DNA of 6,591 nucleotides, taken from the IMG/VR virus record IMGVR_UViG_2634166457_000008; one strand, 5' to 3'. Below, in pieces: positions 1 through 6,591 of this stretch. A program made the translations under genes and the position numbers. Below the pieces are notes generated by a model, which searched no databases, had not been told where the DNA came from, and was given only the letters and a program-made list of their open reading frames with translations. How positions within the stretch are numbered: position 1 is the stretch's first letter; every line of letters begins with the position of its first letter. The DNA comes from a virus. Taxonomy: Duplodnaviria; Heunggongvirae; Uroviricota; Caudoviricetes.

Positions 1-62
1 GTTACCGGTGCAGACGAAATCATAATTTTCGTCAGTTGCGAACGCTCAAAATTAGAGGACAT
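1..62 (-). CDS. Start of an unidentified downstream ORF (first ~20 codons only), possibly the first tail gene
   Basis: ATG at 62-60 with AGGAG 6-7 nt upstream, immediately after the terminator U-tract; frame is open to the window edge (MSSNFERSQLTKIMISSAPV...). Too short to classify. Confidence 0.25.
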   Translation of the reverse strand, partial: MSSNFERSQLTKIMISSAPV

Positions 63-74
63 ACTCGTCTCCTG

Positions 75-100
75 AAAATAAAAAACCCGCCAGCGGCGGG
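75..100 (-). terminator. Rho-independent terminator on the minus strand downstream of the neck genes
   Basis: GC-rich hairpin CCCGCC-agc-GGCGGG at 86-100, followed on the minus-strand transcript by UUUUUUAUUUU (plus-strand A-tract 75-85). It is strand-specific: on the plus strand no T-tract follows the stem. Confidence 0.6.
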
Positions 101-121
101 TGGGTAAAATCATTAACGACC

Positions 122-466
122 TCAGGCTATTACCTGAAATTCAAGCGTGGCTCTGCTCAGACGGGAATCAGGATCATAACCCTGCGTTTTAGAAATAACG
201 GAGGGTACAAGTTGCCTTACCGCATCAAGCGCCTGTTCTCGGATATCATCTGCGTCATCAGGCACCGTTGCCCAGACATCGATCTGCACGGTAATTCTGG
301 ATTCAGCCTGACCATCAAGCACATCAGACGCCGTGTCAGACACCACAGAAAACACCAGCCACGGCGGAGATACCGCAGGCTTTCCCTCCGTCAGCGGGAC
401 CACATAAGGATAAACCTGTCCTCCGGCCAGTTGAGACAGCAGGGAATACAGTGTGGCTTCCCTCAT
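122..466 (-). CDS. DUF3168-like neck protein (tail completion / tail-to-head joining, SPP1 gp17-like)
   Basis: 114-aa ORF whose ATG at 466-464 overlaps the upstream TGA in an ATGA arrangement. Pattern (LYSLLSQ...VYPYVVP...PWLVFSVVSD...RITVQIDVWA) resembles DUF3168 proteins, and position after the gp10-family gene matches the conserved neck-module order. Confidence 0.7.
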   Translation of the reverse strand: MREATLYSLLSQLAGGQVYPYVVPLTEGKPAVSPPWLVFSVVSDTASDVLDGQAESRITVQIDVWATVPDDADDIREQALDAVRQLVPSVISKTQGYDPDSRLSRATLEFQVIA

Positions 467-912
467 TTACTTAAGACCTCATCAATAGCCTGATTCATTC
501 GCTGTATGGCAACCTGCGCCGCCAGCTCCTCTGTCGTATCGAAAGCCGGGCGAATGAATGGATGCGCGGGCATGTTTATCGTTCCCAGCTCCACAAAGCG
601 CCAGTAAAACGCATTTCGGGGATCGCTGGCTTTCATGCTGTTATCACTATTTCCGGTTCGCAGGTTCCGTCCACGAATGTGGACACCCGAGATAATTTCC
701 CCCCGACGCTTTGAACGCTGAGTGAGAACAACCACATTTTTCTTCAGTTTCCCGGTTCGCTCCGGCGCACGTTCAACAACTGCATCCCGCATAACTTCAG
801 CACCGGCACGGGTGGCATCGCGCAGTACCTTATTGTTTTCTGCCCTGCTGAGCGTCTCCAGATCCCGTGCAATATCCGCCAGACCTGAAAAATCAAGACT
901 GAAATCCATCAC
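463..912 (-). CDS. HK97 gp10-family neck/tail-attachment protein
   Basis: Contains the family-typical FYWRFVELGT...MPAHPFIRPA segment. The track start at 912 is a GTG; the more likely start is ATG 909-907, which overlaps the upstream TGA by 1 nt (TGATG), with AAGGGG upstream. TGA stop at 463-465. Confidence 0.8.
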   Translation of the reverse strand: MMDFSLDFSGLADIARDLETLSRAENNKVLRDATRAGAEVMRDAVVERAPERTGKLKKNVVVLTQRSKRRGEIISGVHIRGRNLRTGNSDNSMKASDPRNAFYWRFVELGTINMPAHPFIRPAFDTTEELAAQVAIQRMNQAIDEVLSK

Positions 913-1247
913 ACATTCCCCTTCTGAGAACAGAGTATCTCAAGCCGTGTGGCACGGGCATCCGGTATCGGCGGACCGTCTATACTCAGAATCGCGCCTT
1001 TGAATGCACCAGTCAGCACTTTCAGACATGAAGTTGCTGTTACATCTCGCCGGAATCTCATCCAGACCCTCACTGTAGCCTGAGCAGTTTCTGCACCTCC
1101 GGATATTCTCTCCCTGCCACTGATCCCCTTAACTTCTGCCCATATGGTTGCCCCCTCCGTCATTGTTTCCACAGGGTGCCCTGACGGAGACCGAACGGTG
1201 GTGGCATTCAGAATAACCACACGATCACGTAATCTTCCTGCCTGCAT
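909..1247 (-). CDS. Head-tail adaptor / head-closure protein (Phage_H_T_join, SPP1 gp16-like)
   Basis: 112-aa ORF with ATG at 1247 and AGGAGG 4 nt upstream, overlapping the connector stop. Start (MQAGRLRDRVVI) and internal IWAEV...GRE and VRVWMRFR segments fit the head closure family pattern; TGA stop at 909-911. Confidence 0.8.
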   Translation of the reverse strand: MQAGRLRDRVVILNATTVRSPSGHPVETMTEGATIWAEVKGISGRERISGGAETAQATVRVWMRFRRDVTATSCLKVLTGAFKGAILSIDGPPIPDARATRLEILCSQKGNV

Positions 1248-1255
1248 GAATCCTC

Positions 1256-1561
1256 CTATGTTCCGGGATGAAACCGATACATCCGCAGTCCGGTATAGAA
1301 AAAATCAGGCACTGCATCCTGCATTTCCCTGTTCTCGTACCAGTAGCCAACCAGTTGCATAAGACGCAGTTTTATCAGAGGTGTTATTACAAGCCCGGTC
1401 GTATCCTGCTCAGAAACAGTTTCATCGTAAAGCGTCCGGTTTAAAAACTTTTCAGCCTCTTCCCTGGCAGCAGCCAGATACATCATAAGAAGAGAATTCT
1501 CCTGTTCATTGTCATCATCAATACGGCACTGAACACGAAGCTCTTCCAGAGTGGGCATCAT
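1256..1561 (-). CDS. Head-tail connector protein (phage gp6-like, Phage_connect_1 family)
   Basis: 101-aa ORF whose N-terminus (TLEELRVQCRIDDDNEQENSLLMMYLAAAREEAEKFLNRTL) matches the usual gp6-like connector signature. ATG at 1561 with GAGG upstream; TAG stop at 1256-1258. Confidence 0.8.
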   Translation of the reverse strand: MMPTLEELRVQCRIDDDNEQENSLLMMYLAAAREEAEKFLNRTLYDETVSEQDTTGLVITPLIKLRLMQLVGYWYENREMQDAVPDFFYTGLRMYRFHPGT

Positions 1562-1572
1562 TTGGGCAACCT

Positions 1573-1761
1573 CTATGAATGCTGTTTTTTAGACTTATCA
1601 GCCCCCCGCGCAACAGGTGTTCTCTTATCAGAGACAATCCCAGCTGCAGTGGCAATTTCGCGTACCCGTTCGGGTAATTCTTTATCTTCATACTCACCGG
1701 CTCGAATAATCTCAACACGCATACCGTCCGGTGACCATTTCAGATCTTGTTTCAGGATCAT
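1573..1761 (-). CDS. Hypothetical small protein (62 aa) between major capsid and head-tail connector
   Basis: ATG at 1761-1759 preceded by AGGTGA 7 nt upstream, directly after the hairpin. Its TAG stop at 1573-1575 is embedded in the GAGG ribosome-binding site of the connector gene. Hydrophilic, charged sequence with no motif I recognise; supported by gene context only. Confidence 0.45.
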   Translation of the reverse strand: MILKQDLKWSPDGMRVEIIRAGEYEDKELPERVREIATAAGIVSDKRTPVARGADKSKKQHS

Positions 1762-1781
1762 GATTCTTTCACCTGTCAGAA

Positions 1782-1805
1782 CAGGGGCGCACTTCTGCGC
1801 CCCCT
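1782..1805 (-). terminator. Stem-loop just after the major capsid gene: putative partial terminator or mRNA-stabilising hairpin
   Basis: Perfect 9-bp GC-rich inverted repeat CAGGGGCGC / GCGCCCCTG with a 6-nt loop, 6 nt after the capsid stop. On the minus-strand transcript it is followed by only a short U-rich stretch (UUCUG), so read-through is probably partial. The ribosome-binding site of the next ORF starts right after it. Confidence 0.4.
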
Positions 1806-1811
1806 GAATGA

Positions 1812-3017
1812 TTACGCTGCTGCAATCTTCAGCAGTTTGATGGCCTGCGAATCGACCAGCATGCCGCCGGTGCGCTTGGTGGTATAAAAACCGACAAACG
1901 GTTTATTGGTGTACGGGTCACGCAGAATGCGGGTACCGATACGGTCAACGATGGTGTAACCCCGTTTGAAGTTACCGAATGCAATGGCTTTCGCATCAGC
2001 GGCAATATCCGGCATCTGTTCGTTTTCAGCGATACCGTAACCCGCCAGAGAGGACGGCTGCCCCAGCTCCAGCCCCGGACGCCACAGATAGTTACCCTCG
2101 GTGTCTTTCAGCAGACGAATGGCAAACAGGCTGTTGTTGTTCATCATGAACTTCGCGCCGGTGCGGTGTGCCTTACGCAGCGTGTAAATCAGTTTGATAA
2201 TGGCATCTGCGGTCACTGCCGTCGCTTCGCCGGATACAATATGCTGAAGTTTGCCGAACGCCCGGACCTTGTCGGTTTCATCAGTGGACTCATACGCCAG
2301 GAACCCTTTCGGCTTCTTGGTACCATCGCCGGTGGTAAAGGCAATTTCTTCCTGTTCGGCAAATTCGGTTGCCAGCTCGCTGTTGATCCAGGCCTCCACG
2401 TTGAAAAAGGCATCATCCAGCATTTTCTGGGTGGCCTGCGGGTTACCGTAGATTTCCCCCATGAAAGGTTCAATCAGGCCCAGTTTTGAGGTGGCAGTCT
2501 GGGAGCGCGCGTCAGTCTCGCCCACCCATCCGGAAGCCGTGCCGCCCAGATTCACCAGTTTTTTGTAGTCGGAACCACCAACGGTGATCACCGTGGCTTC
2601 CTGACGCATCACCACTTCATCTTTCAGCAGGTTGAGAATGTTACGATCCAGTTCTTCCGGCACGGCGTAGCCACCGTCTTCATCAGTGCCCACCTGCAAT
2701 GCCTTACGCTCCAGATCGCGCAGACCGTCTTCACGGCCTTTACGCAGGAAGCCCACAAACGCCTCTTTATGCTCGGTGGCCAGTTTATTTTGCGCACCAC
2801 CTGCCGGACGTTTCAGCTCAAGCAGCTCTTTTTCAAGGTCGCTTTTGAGATTTTCCAGCTCGCTGAGTTTTCCGTTCAGGGTTTCCACCTGCCCGGCAAG
2901 TTTGCCTTTTTCCTGCTCAATCGCCTCCACGCGCTTGTCGTTCTTTGCTTTGAAGTCGTCAAACTTCTGCTGCAGCTCCTGCGCGACCTGTTCGACATCT
3001 TTAATATCAACCGCCAT
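1812..3017 (-). CDS. Major capsid protein, HK97 fold (Phage_capsid family) with N-terminal coiled-coil delta (scaffolding) domain
   Basis: 401-aa ORF with ATG at 3017-3015 and AGGAG 7 nt upstream, following the protease TAA; TAA stop at 1812-1814. The first ~70 residues are E/K/L-rich heptad-like sequence (KLAGQVETLNGKLSELENLKSDLEKELLELK), followed by the characteristic GGYAVPEE segment and a capsid-sized body. Gene order protease then capsid is canonical. Confidence 0.9.
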   Translation of the reverse strand: MAVDIKDVEQVAQELQQKFDDFKAKNDKRVEAIEQEKGKLAGQVETLNGKLSELENLKSDLEKELLELKRPAGGAQNKLATEHKEAFVGFLRKGREDGLRDLERKALQVGTDEDGGYAVPEELDRNILNLLKDEVVMRQEATVITVGGSDYKKLVNLGGTASGWVGETDARSQTATSKLGLIEPFMGEIYGNPQATQKMLDDAFFNVEAWINSELATEFAEQEEIAFTTGDGTKKPKGFLAYESTDETDKVRAFGKLQHIVSGEATAVTADAIIKLIYTLRKAHRTGAKFMMNNNSLFAIRLLKDTEGNYLWRPGLELGQPSSLAGYGIAENEQMPDIAADAKAIAFGNFKRGYTIVDRIGTRILRDPYTNKPFVGFYTTKRTGGMLVDSQAIKLLKIAAA

Positions 3018-3031
3018 CGTATTTCTCCTGA

Positions 3032-3682
3032 TTAGAAGTTCAGATTTTTCAGTGCATTCAGTGCAGAGCCCACATCCTCAGCGTCGCGCAGGGACAGTGC
3101 GCCATAACCCCCGGCCATGAATGCTTTGGCCTGGGTACGGGAGAGTCCGACATCACGCAGGACTCTTTCGATTTTTTTCTGTTCGGGGATTTCCCCGCGG
3201 ACCAGCGCGTTCTTGACGTCGCTGATCCGCGCCTCGTCGTTAGACGGAAACGTCACCAGACTGACTTCCCAGAGGTCGATTTCTTTCAGCAGAAAGGCTT
3301 CTTTCGTCCGGTCGTATTCCCAGTCCTTCAGGACGTACCCAATAGAAAGGCCGGTTAACGAACCGGCCTTCATGTGTGCATGTGCGCGTTTTGCCAGGGG
3401 ATCATCATCAATGAGCAACCGCCCCCTGACGTAAAGCCCGATATCGTCTTCCTTCATTTCGGTGTAAACACCGATGGGCTCATCCATGCGGTGCTGCCAG
3501 AGCAGCGCAGGCAACGCTTTTCTGTCACTCTACGCCCGCAGGGAAGCAGCAAATGCCCCGGACATCACCACATCATCGTGACTGTCCTTTACACCAAAGA
3601 CGGAGCCATATCCTTCAAACTCACCGGAGTCACTGACAGATTTCAGACTCAGCGGTACATCAAGACGTTGTTTCGTCTGCAT
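3032..3682 (-). pseudogene. Prohead protease (HK97 gp4 / peptidase S78-like) interrupted by an in-frame TAG at 3530-3532
   Basis: Track ORFs 3530..3718 and 3032..3514 are in the same minus-strand frame and separated only by one TAG. The N-terminal piece carries the S78-like start (GEFEGYGSVFGVKDSHDDVVMSGAF); the downstream piece carries the conserved ALLWQHR...PIGV and GLSIGY segments that I take to contain the catalytic His and Ser by analogy to HK97 gp4. Likely start is ATG 3682-3680 (AAGGA 8 nt upstream), overlapping the portal 3' end by 23 nt; ATG 3718 has no Shine-Dalgarno. The track's start for the downstream piece is a TTG with no convincing ribosome-binding site. Confidence 0.75.
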
Positions 3683-4901
3683 TGGCGTTATCCTTCTGCT
3701 TACCGGCTTTACTGCCATCGGAGGGTTTCGTGGTCATGTTCATCGGTGTGAGATAGACATCCCCACCGGGACGCGGATTCATATCTTCCAGGTCGCGGCA
3801 GTCATTGGGAGAGTAAATTCCCCAGTTAATCCCGGTGGCGTAGGCTTCAAAACGGGACTTCATATCCCCGCGCAGTAACGCCCCGGCGTTAAATTTGGCG
3901 TAATAAACGCCCTGCTTACTTTTTCGTACCAGTCCGGTGTTGATCCGCTGTTCGATGCGGGTCAGATACGGCACCAGTGAATAGTTGATAAATCCGAGCC
4001 CCAGTTCTTCGATATTGTTGAAGGTGGCGCGATCGGTGTTCTGCACCATGTGCAACGGTACCCGGAACAGACGACAGATTTCTTCAAGCTGAAACTTGCG
4101 GGTTTCCAGGAACTGGCTGTCCTCGGCGTTCAACGCCATCGACTTCCAGTCCAGCCCCATCTCAAGGATCATCGGGCGGTGAGCATTGCCAAGCCCGGTG
4201 TGACGCTCCTCAAAATCTTTCTTCAGGCGCTCATAAGCCTGATCTGACAGCGTCTGCTCTGTACGCAACACACCCGACGTCACCGCGCCATTGCTGAACA
4301 GTCTGGCCCCGTGCTCTTCGGTCGCTGCCGCCAGCGATATTGCCTCGCGGGCATAGGCGATGGGATTCAGCCCCACCAGTCCGTCCAGCGTCAGCGTGCG
4401 CACATGCCAGATATCCTCCTGGCTCAGTACATCCGTGGAGCCATCCGGGAATGTGACCTGATAGACCGGCTCCCAGCTACTGTTAAGCTTCGGTACCACA
4501 CAGCCGGGATCGACGGGCAGCAGTTCAGCCACTTCGCCAAATGCTTTCACTTTGTAGGCGTAAAAGTTTCCCCTCAGGCACAGACAGGTGACCACCAGCT
4601 CCCAGAACTCCTGCGGCGTCATATAGCCATTAGGATGCGTGGAGATCAGCTTATGCAGACGTTCGCCGGTGGCTCTCTGTTTCAGGCTGCCGTTCATGTG
4701 ATACAGATTGCAGGGCAACATCCCGACCGACTCTGCCAGCACCCTGACGCAGGAAAAAACCGCCGTCAGTCGCATGGCCCGCTGACTGCTGATCTGCTTT
4801 CCGGTATAGGTGTCGTAAGACAACCCGATGGCATCCGCCAGCTCTGCTGGCGTGGTCACCGGCGCGTCACTTTTTCGTTGAAATAATCCCGAAAAGAACA
4901 C
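3660..4901 (-). CDS. Phage portal protein (HK97 family)
   Basis: 413-aa ORF with GTG start at 4901-4899 and GGAGG 7 nt upstream; TGA stop at 3660-3662. Size, composition and acidic C-terminal tail are typical of HK97-type portals, and it sits between terminase and prohead protease. Confidence 0.9.
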   Translation of the reverse strand: MFFSGLFQRKSDAPVTTPAELADAIGLSYDTYTGKQISSQRAMRLTAVFSCVRVLAESVGMLPCNLYHMNGSLKQRATGERLHKLISTHPNGYMTPQEFWELVVTCLCLRGNFYAYKVKAFGEVAELLPVDPGCVVPKLNSSWEPVYQVTFPDGSTDVLSQEDIWHVRTLTLDGLVGLNPIAYAREAISLAAATEEHGARLFSNGAVTSGVLRTEQTLSDQAYERLKKDFEERHTGLGNAHRPMILEMGLDWKSMALNAEDSQFLETRKFQLEEICRLFRVPLHMVQNTDRATFNNIEELGLGFINYSLVPYLTRIEQRINTGLVRKSKQGVYYAKFNAGALLRGDMKSRFEAYATGINWGIYSPNDCRDLEDMNPRPGGDVYLTPMNMTTKPSDGSKAGKQKDNANADETTS

Positions 4902-5083
4902 TATTTACCTCCGCCGACAGACGGCTGTGTACGGTCGAGATATCGCGCCACCAGCCACGACCAGAACAGGCACAGCACCCCGGCAACAACAAAACCCGCC
5001 GGGGGATAAATCAGCCAGGCACCATACGCCAGCAAAAGCGCACCCAGCACGCCCACCAGTGGCGCGAGAATTATCAGAAACAT
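4901..5083 (-). CDS. Small predicted membrane protein (60 aa, two hydrophobic helices), function unknown
   Basis: ATG at 5083-5081 preceded by GAGGT 4 nt upstream, directly after the terminase TAA. Translation [48 protein letters not shown] plus a short charged tail gives two hydrophobic segments. Its last codons GGA GGT AAA TAG supply the GGAGG Shine-Dalgarno for the portal, and its TAG overlaps the portal GTG start by 1 nt (TAGTG). Confidence 0.5.
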
Positions 5084-5094
5084 AATGACCTCGG

Positions 5095-6591
5095 TTAAAG
5101 CGAGCGGATGCCCACGCTGACCAGATGTTCAGACAGATCCGGCTCCGGTTCACCGCCATTGACCAGCATCCGGCTCATTGCTGTAAACATCGCAACAGGG
5201 CCGTCGATTTTGGCTTCAGGCGTGGATTTATTCGGGAAGATATTGTCGTTTTTGTCCGGTTTTACCGTAACGTTAGACATCATCCAGTTCATAACCGGGT
5301 GATTGCTGTGATGGAAACGCCCGGCATAGACCAGTGATTCCGTTTCCTTCATGGCCTCTGACAGATTGCGGACCGTCTGCGGAACCTCCACCAGCGGTAT
5401 CCCTTCTTCAGCCAGTGCCAGGCTGAACTGCATCGCGCTCCACGGGTCAAATCCCAGTTCCCTGAGGTTTTCACCACCAATCCATTCCAGTAAGTCACTT
5501 TTTATCTGAGCATGATCGATAACATCACCATCCGTCAGAATCAGCTTATCCATCTCCGCCCACTTCCGGTAAAGTTCTGCCTGCTGCCGCGAGCATCGTT
5601 CCAGCCGTCCTTCCGGGAGCCAGAATTTAAAATCGGCATGAACATGCCCGTTATCCGTTCGCCAGAGTTTTGCCGCCGCACAGATATCAATCTTATGAGC
5701 AAGGTCAACGCCGACCCACATGGGATACGTTTTCAGCTCATGTCGTGGGGCAATGTATTCGCACTTCTCCCACTTAATCATGTCCATCCAGGCAGACTCT
5801 GCTGTTACCCACACATTCATGTGTTTGGTAAAAAAATTCACCCGCGCAGAGACCTGCTCCTTCGCTTTTTTTGCCAGGCGACGCAGATCATCCCAGCGTT
5901 TACAGATGCCCAGGCCCGGATTCGCTTTCTGCCAGACCGTTTCATCAAACGGATCATCTCCCTCATCGAGGGTGTAAATAATCGCAAAGTAGGAGTCGTC
6001 TTTTACCGCGCCCCCCACGTCGCTGTTATAGCCTCGCAATACCTTGATGGCGTAATCGCGTTGCTCGTAACAAATCCCTTCCTTGTTAAAGCCAGCCGTG
6101 GTGATGCCAAATAACAGGGACTGCAGACGGGCACCGGTTGCCGTTTCCAGAACGTCCCACACGTCACGGGTTTTATGTGCATGCAGCTCATCAATAATGG
6201 CGCAGTGGATGTTCAGACCATCCAGGTTGTTTGCATCCGAGGAAAGCGGTTCAAATTTTGATGCGCTCTGCTCCTGGTAAATCGCCAGCTTGTTGAAATC
6301 AAACAACCGCCCGAGTGTCGACCGGGCTTTTCTGACCATATTTTTGGCGTCTTCAAACACGATTCTGGCCTGGTCACGCGTGGTTGCGGCTGAATACACC
6401 TCAGCACCGCCTTCACCATCTGCCCCCGTCATATACAGGCCGATACCCGATGACAGGGTTGATTTTGCGTTTTTACGGGCGACTTCGTTGTACGCCGTCC
6501 GGAACCGGCGCACCATCACCGGGCGTCCGCTGCCATCGCTGCGCATGACAACTTCCCCGGTCTCTTCATTCACCAGCGGAATGACAAAACC
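5095..6591 (-). CDS. Phage terminase large subunit (HK97/Terminase_1-like), partial: N-terminal part including Walker A lies beyond the window edge
   Basis: Minus-strand reading frame is open from the window edge (6591) to a TAA stop at 5095-5097; the track's start at 6573 is a GTG inside this open frame. Translation contains a Walker B-like motif ([11 protein letters not shown]) and a C-terminal RNase H-like nuclease region ([16 protein letters not shown], further acidic residues). No Walker A is visible, so about 100 or more residues are probably missing upstream. Position immediately upstream of portal fits the canonical order. Confidence 0.9.

Follow-up and report, generated by a model that had tools for sequence, protein, structure and literature searches.

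The late operon analysed here carries a predicted intrinsic terminator directly before the major tail gene of an HK97-like prophage, where it probably acts as an insulator that Q-modified RNA polymerase would read through; the mechanistic part of this reading we infer. The window (the whole stretch of DNA analysed, 6,591 nt) spans the head-neck part of that operon, and comparison with related elements, on which this assignment rests, identifies its source as an ordinary HK97-like lambdoid siphophage prophage of E. coli.

Scaffold KQ241493.1 (9,802 bp, assembly GCA_001186315.2) is 100% identical to the window, which corresponds to the stretch running from a 590-N gap inside TerS/TerL (scaffold positions 2622-3211) to the scaffold end. 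Window position 1 is thus the end of the scaffold, and it falls inside the major tail gene. Both bounds, the scaffold end and the N gap, are typical of assembly breaks in repeated lambdoid prophage genes. The minus strand is the coding strand of every gene in the window (Table 1). The first-pass annotation had described a head and neck gene set from the translations, and Pfam matches were obtained for all eight of its members, from TerL through Tail_completion_gp17. The 5' part of the TerL gene lies outside the window, past the N gap; the TerL of relatives is 585 aa long. The tail completion gene, which ends in a TGA stop codon at 124..122, is the final neck gene before the terminator, and its product shares 52% amino acid identity with HK97 gp11. 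A further ORF of 60 aa, hydrophobic and YmfR-like, is found between the TerL and portal genes (4901-5083, minus strand). It gave no match in the Pfam search and is kept in all relatives, myovirus-type ones included. An Rfam search of the whole window returned zero matches at the gathering threshold.

Table 1. Coordinates of the genes and of the elements of the neck-tail junction in the window.
Feature	Position	Strand	Description
Large terminase gene (TerL)	5095..6591	-	PF03354 + PF20441
Portal protein gene	3660..4901	-	PF04860
Prohead protease gene (S78), interrupted by amber codon 3532..3530	3032..3682	-	PF04586
Major capsid protein gene	1812..3017	-	PF05065
gp6-like head-tail connector gene	1256..1561	-	PF05135
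Head completion / head closure protein gene	909..1247	-	PF05521
HK97 gp10-like neck protein gene	463..912	-	PF04883
Tail completion protein gene, HK97 gp11 / SPP1 gp17 type, 114 aa	122..466	-	Pfam PF11367 Tail_completion_gp17, E = 4e-10
Spacer, stop codon to hairpin	102..121	-	Not conserved between lineages
Predicted terminator hairpin ACCCGCC-GCT-GGCGGGT	85..101	-	Perfect 7-bp stem, six G-C pairs, 3-nt loop
T tract TTTTTTATTTT, also written TTTTTTATTT(T)	75..84	-	Directly 3' of stem, 9 T in next 10 nt
Shine-Dalgarno AGGAG	69..73	-	6-nt spacer to ATG 62..60
Major tail protein gene, 5' end (20 codons + 2 nt)	1..62	-	Start ATG 62..60; cut by scaffold end

The intergenic region between the tail completion and major tail genes is 59 nt long (121..63). 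It contains the hairpin and T tract, the latter separated from the AGGAG motif by a single C at 74. An intrinsic terminator had been reported straight after the last neck gene at 75-100, and it is indeed present there, its limits needing correction by one base. In a pattern scan, the hairpin and T tract at 101..75 ranked as the best terminator-like site in the window. Sites of equal strength, defined by a perfect 7-bp stem with at least six G-C pairs and at least eight T in the next 10 nt, number one in the window and none in 300 dinucleotide-preserving shuffles. The element occupies one of the few non-coding stretches, lies on the sense strand and is downstream of a stop codon. By its sequence signature, together with the structural conservation described below, 101..75 fits a predicted intrinsic (Rho-independent) terminator.

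The ORF opened by ATG 62..60 runs off the window (MSSNFERSQLTKIMISSAPV...). In relatives, the full gene encodes a 234-aa Ig-domain major tail protein whose start is identical or nearly identical to that in the window, and whose remaining sequence from codon 21 reads ...TAETLDSASYLGLSC.... Compared with gp12, the major tail subunit of HK97, the full-length protein of a relative shows 71% identity. Several public annotations use a 251-aa version of this ORF, starting at the in-frame ATG 113..111 (with GAGG before it, at 120-123), which adds 17 codons and runs through the hairpin, making it coding. This candidate was rejected, as its frame is broken in relatives by 1-nt indels, either seven T rather than six in the T tract or an extra base in the spacer, that leave the downstream ORF unchanged. 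The hairpin is therefore non-coding and the real start is 62..60. The major tail gene should accordingly be annotated from the ATG that follows the terminator (234 aa), the 251-aa call being a mis-annotation.

Two matches cover the full length of the window: a prophage of E. coli CAU16175 (98.7% identity) and phage vB_EcoM-606R7 (98.1%). Together with phages phi467 and Evi, these are 97-98.7% identical at the nucleotide level over the window or the junction and carry the same terminator; the window copy differs from them in its protease amber codon and in being split by assembly gaps. After the terminator, both the CAU16175 prophage and 606R7 encode the major tail protein, the G and T chaperones, the tape measure protein, M, L, K, I, J, Lom and a tail fibre. 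Their upstream part comprises HNH and TerS, the lysis and tRNA genes, a gene for a Q-type antiterminator, the lambdoid early region and an integrase gene. A slippery sequence, A AAA AAG, closes the chaperone gene, with the T frame continuing at -1. The elements of the relatives measure ~38-41 kb. Their gene content includes regulators of cI/cro type, replication genes, Q and RusA, and an integrase gene sits at the far end. Four further contigs that are 99.3-99.4% identical to the window (L020, L021, L024 and L025) continue into major tail, G, T, tape measure and M/L genes, and all 10 of the 10 long contigs encoding the exact tail completion protein continue into major tail, G, T, tape measure and tip genes. 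When the neck gene-terminator-tail gene segment was used as a query against 5426 complete E. coli genomes, 900 gave matches, and the junction was intact (at least 80% query coverage) in 895 of them. With the head and neck genes taken from the window and the downstream genes from the 98-99.4% identical relatives, the late operon reads TerS-TerL-portal-protease-capsid-gp6-gp7-gp10-gp11-major tail-G/GT-tape measure-M-L-K-I-J, an order collinear with that of HK97.

These comparisons bear on a second proposal of the first-pass annotation, that the packaging module of a capsid-forming satellite without tails (cf-PICI), one that borrows those of a helper phage, might end at the terminator. On its own, the window holds only HNH-type packaging, head and connector genes, and cf-PICIs do carry terS, terL, portal, protease, capsid, adaptor and connector genes (PMC10085698). 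In the cf-PICIs EcCIEDL933, EcCIGN02175 and KpCIDSM30104, genes for an HK97-fold capsid, portal, protease, TerS/TerL, HNH and head-tail connectors/adaptors are arranged as in this element, but these islands are small, have no genes for tails or holins, and carry int, alpA and primase genes in their left arm. The SatelliteFinder definition of a cf-PICI likewise requires an integrase/regulator/primase arm beside the packaging genes and treats tails and holins as "forbidden" components (PMC10085698). The element studied here has both forbidden kinds of gene. The ORF that follows the terminator is the major tail gene (window 62..1), the window also includes gp10-like and gp17-type tail completion genes, and the source scaffold itself encodes a holin (477-683), a lysozyme (683-1180) and an Rz-type lysis protein (1239-1733) just upstream of HNH-TerS. 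Every near-identical relative examined carries a full tail cluster, with major tail, G/GT and tape measure genes immediately downstream of the junction, and the junction is not intact in just five of the 900 E. coli genomes. Judged on the relatives (the source scaffold being 9.8 kb), the element has a lambdoid early region and a phage-like size in place of an int-AlpA-primase module and a length of ~10-18 kb. Given the start of a tail gene, the lysis genes and the full-size lambdoid relatives, we reject the satellite reading, whose probability we consider negligible. The alternative of a complete siphophage, which the first-pass annotation had placed beside it, stands, and the checks that it had recommended, for major tail, tape measure and tail fibre genes past position 1 and for element size, came out in its favour when run on the relatives. 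The element is best filed as a lambdoid siphophage prophage rather than a satellite, with the reservation that this copy is possibly defective through the amber codon in its protease gene.

The GenBank record of HK97 (AF069529) contains a regulatory feature at 6692-6719, labelled "terminator, putative", between gene 11 and gene 12 (the major tail subunit). Other putative terminators in that record lie downstream of the portal gene, of the capsid gene and of gene 12, and ahead of the tape measure gene. The premise that a terminator at this point is atypical of HK97-like phages was thus mistaken, since HK97 has one annotated at the homologous junction. As in the window, the HK97 element follows the gp11-type gene, precedes the major tail start by ~14-20 nt, and combines a CCCGCC/GGCGGG stem, a T tract and AGGAG. 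The flanking genes are homologous (at the 52% and 71% amino acid identities given above), and similarity at the DNA level starts at the hairpin. The two differ in the loop, which is 4 nt long in HK97 (AGAT) and 3 nt long here (GCT), and in details of the T tract, and their upstream spacers are unrelated. The head module of the window (P27-type TerS, portal, S78 protease and capsid) is unlike that of HK97 at the DNA level. The comparison identifies the predicted terminator as a conserved, already annotated and hence already known element of HK97 type that precedes the major tail gene. Beyond correct annotation, the finding matters little.

DNA similarity to HK97, to Stx-converting phages and to Klebsiella prophages begins at query positions 366-368, equivalent to window 101-99, the first bases of the stem. 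Between lineages the preceding spacer is unrelated, so the hairpin travels with the tail gene. To gauge its conservation, 320 loci encoding homologues of the major tail protein in four lineages were surveyed, 313 of which were usable. A hairpin with a perfect stem and a T tract was present no more than 80 nt upstream of the major tail start codon in 295 of these 313 loci (94%), and most of the other 18 have a version of the hairpin with one mismatch. The tail proteins of the surveyed lineages are only 65-75% identical. In an alignment built from 63 different upstream sequences, standard pairs are formed by 93.3% of stem cells; sliding the 3' arm lowers this to 34-69%. At one position of the stem the pair is C-G (29 sequences), A-U (17) or G-C (9), and loops vary freely (GCT, ACT, CGCGT, TCCG, TACG, AGAT and others). 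The tract that follows the stem is T-rich in all four lineages, and the Shine-Dalgarno sequence is kept as AGGAG or CGGAG in three of them. The structural support amounts to few independent events, since there are approximately four lineages and one covarying pair, and much of the stem is simply conserved sequence.

The Klebsiella lineage (L015 1480-1527; L109-L188) keeps the hairpin and T tract and has no Shine-Dalgarno sequence between the T tract and the annotated ATG. Its upstream spacer contains a variable short repeat of CCAAT type.

The coincidence of the first stem base with the start of inter-lineage similarity suggests that the hairpin belongs to the tail module and that a recombination boundary lies at its edge. 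It could then be a relic without present function at a mosaic junction, passed on together with the major tail gene. That it should be such a neutral passenger is very improbable, given that pairing is held at 93% despite changes in the loop, in the spacer and even in one stem pair, and that the element recurs at 94% of the 313 loci, in lineages with tail proteins diverged to the extent described above.

Relatives of the window encode the expected regulatory machinery upstream of their lysis and structural genes, namely a Q-type antiterminator followed by a promoter-proximal terminator. In one (L002) an antitermination protein gene at 31270-32091 is followed ~80 nt downstream by a strong terminator (31188..31169), and another (L005) has a PF06323 match. 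Q-loaded RNA polymerase has a narrowed and extended RNA exit channel in which terminator hairpins cannot form (PMC9388147; PMC6606751). Because polymerase in this state resists hairpins, late transcripts are expected to continue past the site, and polymerase without Q should stop there. We therefore propose that a single Q-dependent late promoter drives the late operon, and that Q-loaded polymerase would read through the terminator into the genes for the major tail protein, the chaperones, the tape measure and the tip. Polymerase lacking Q, including any that started spuriously inside the head genes, in a lysogen or early in infection, would be stopped at the terminator. Expression of the tail genes would thereby stay dependent on Q. 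A promoter scan found one weak promoter-like site on the coding strand, a count below that in shuffles, so internal spurious starts are neither supported nor excluded by it.

Comparable elements are known from other phages with lambdoid or P22-like late operons. A Rho-independent terminator predicted within the late operon of phage L (PMC8022706) likewise lies downstream of a single antitermination-dependent late promoter and at the boundary of a morphogenetic module, which in phage L is the end of the procapsid module and here is the neck/tail boundary. The roles of such terminators are described as not known, with partial termination and the stopping of spurious transcripts named as possibilities (PMC8022706).

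The first of these possibilities corresponds to the "head/tail attenuation" that had also been raised for this site: Q-modified polymerase would sometimes terminate, lowering the dose of tail mRNA below that of head mRNA. The conserved signature of a canonical strong terminator is what such a partial attenuator would also show, and partial termination has been named as a possible role for intra-operon terminators in the study just cited. We nevertheless consider this reading unlikely. A site immediately before the gene of the most-needed tail protein, and after neck genes whose products are required in few copies, is the wrong place for a reduction in dose, and Q-loaded polymerase is resistant to termination (PMC9388147).

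In this element a U-rich tract and a strong Shine-Dalgarno sequence stand directly before the gene of the most abundant tail protein, which raises the question of whether the element works at the level of RNA. Once the long late mRNA had been processed, the hairpin might shield either the segment upstream of it at its 3' end or the tail segment at its 5' end, and the U-rich tract might boost translation of the tail protein. The abutment of the U tract on the Shine-Dalgarno sequence would suit such a role, as would a second strong hairpin that follows the capsid gene and has no T tract, and in HK97 the putative terminators flank the two most abundant structural genes, 5 and 12. Against this, processing sites are without evidence, and a T-rich tract directly follows the stem in every lineage, including the Klebsiella lineage without AGGAG, which fits competence for termination better than a hairpin serving purely for RNA stability. 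An RNA-level role consequently seems improbable, somewhat more so than attenuation. Insulation by Q-dependent read-through is the role that we infer and favour over both, on the strength of sequence comparisons and of what is known of Q-loaded polymerases.

A more speculative extension of the insulator proposal, to which we give little credence, is that the hairpin, T tract and Shine-Dalgarno sequence together form a selected, portable "front end" of the HK97-type tail module, combining insulation against unmodified polymerase, for strict Q-dependence, with a conserved ~40-nt patch of homology at which tail modules are exchanged among differing neck and head modules. Such a patch would explain why the first stem base is exactly where DNA similarity between lineages sets in. 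For the study of conserved terminators in Q-antiterminated late operons, the junction offers a convenient test case, being present in ~900 complete E. coli genomes and in HK97.

A second canonical terminator was observed further downstream in one relative (L002 18646-18661), between the tail gene T and the tape measure gene. In two others (L006 11856-12197 and L007 11855-12196) the slot between these genes is occupied by a 113-aa zinc-ribbon gene resembling a moron insertion. HK97 has both a moron, gene 15, and a terminator in this slot.

Several features of the head module merit separate mention. Codon 51 of the protease gene is TAG in the window (minus strand 3530-3532) and TGG (Trp) in six close relatives. 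The prophage copy in the window may thus be defective; alternatively, the base may reflect a sequencing error. An identical 401-aa capsid protein, together with the portal and protease, is also encoded in myovirus-type prophages (L019, L022 and L023; window 1688-5114) that have a sheath, a tube and a Mu-like baseplate and belong to the SfI/SfII/SfIV/ST64B group. The head module is common to phages with contractile and with lambda-like tails, with the mosaic break just past the capsid gene. Directly 3' of the capsid stop codon lies the G+C-rich hairpin referred to above, with a 9-bp stem (GGGGGCGCA-GAAG-TGCGCCCCT, 1804..1783, minus strand); no T tract follows this stem, and a putative terminator is annotated at the equivalent place in HK97.
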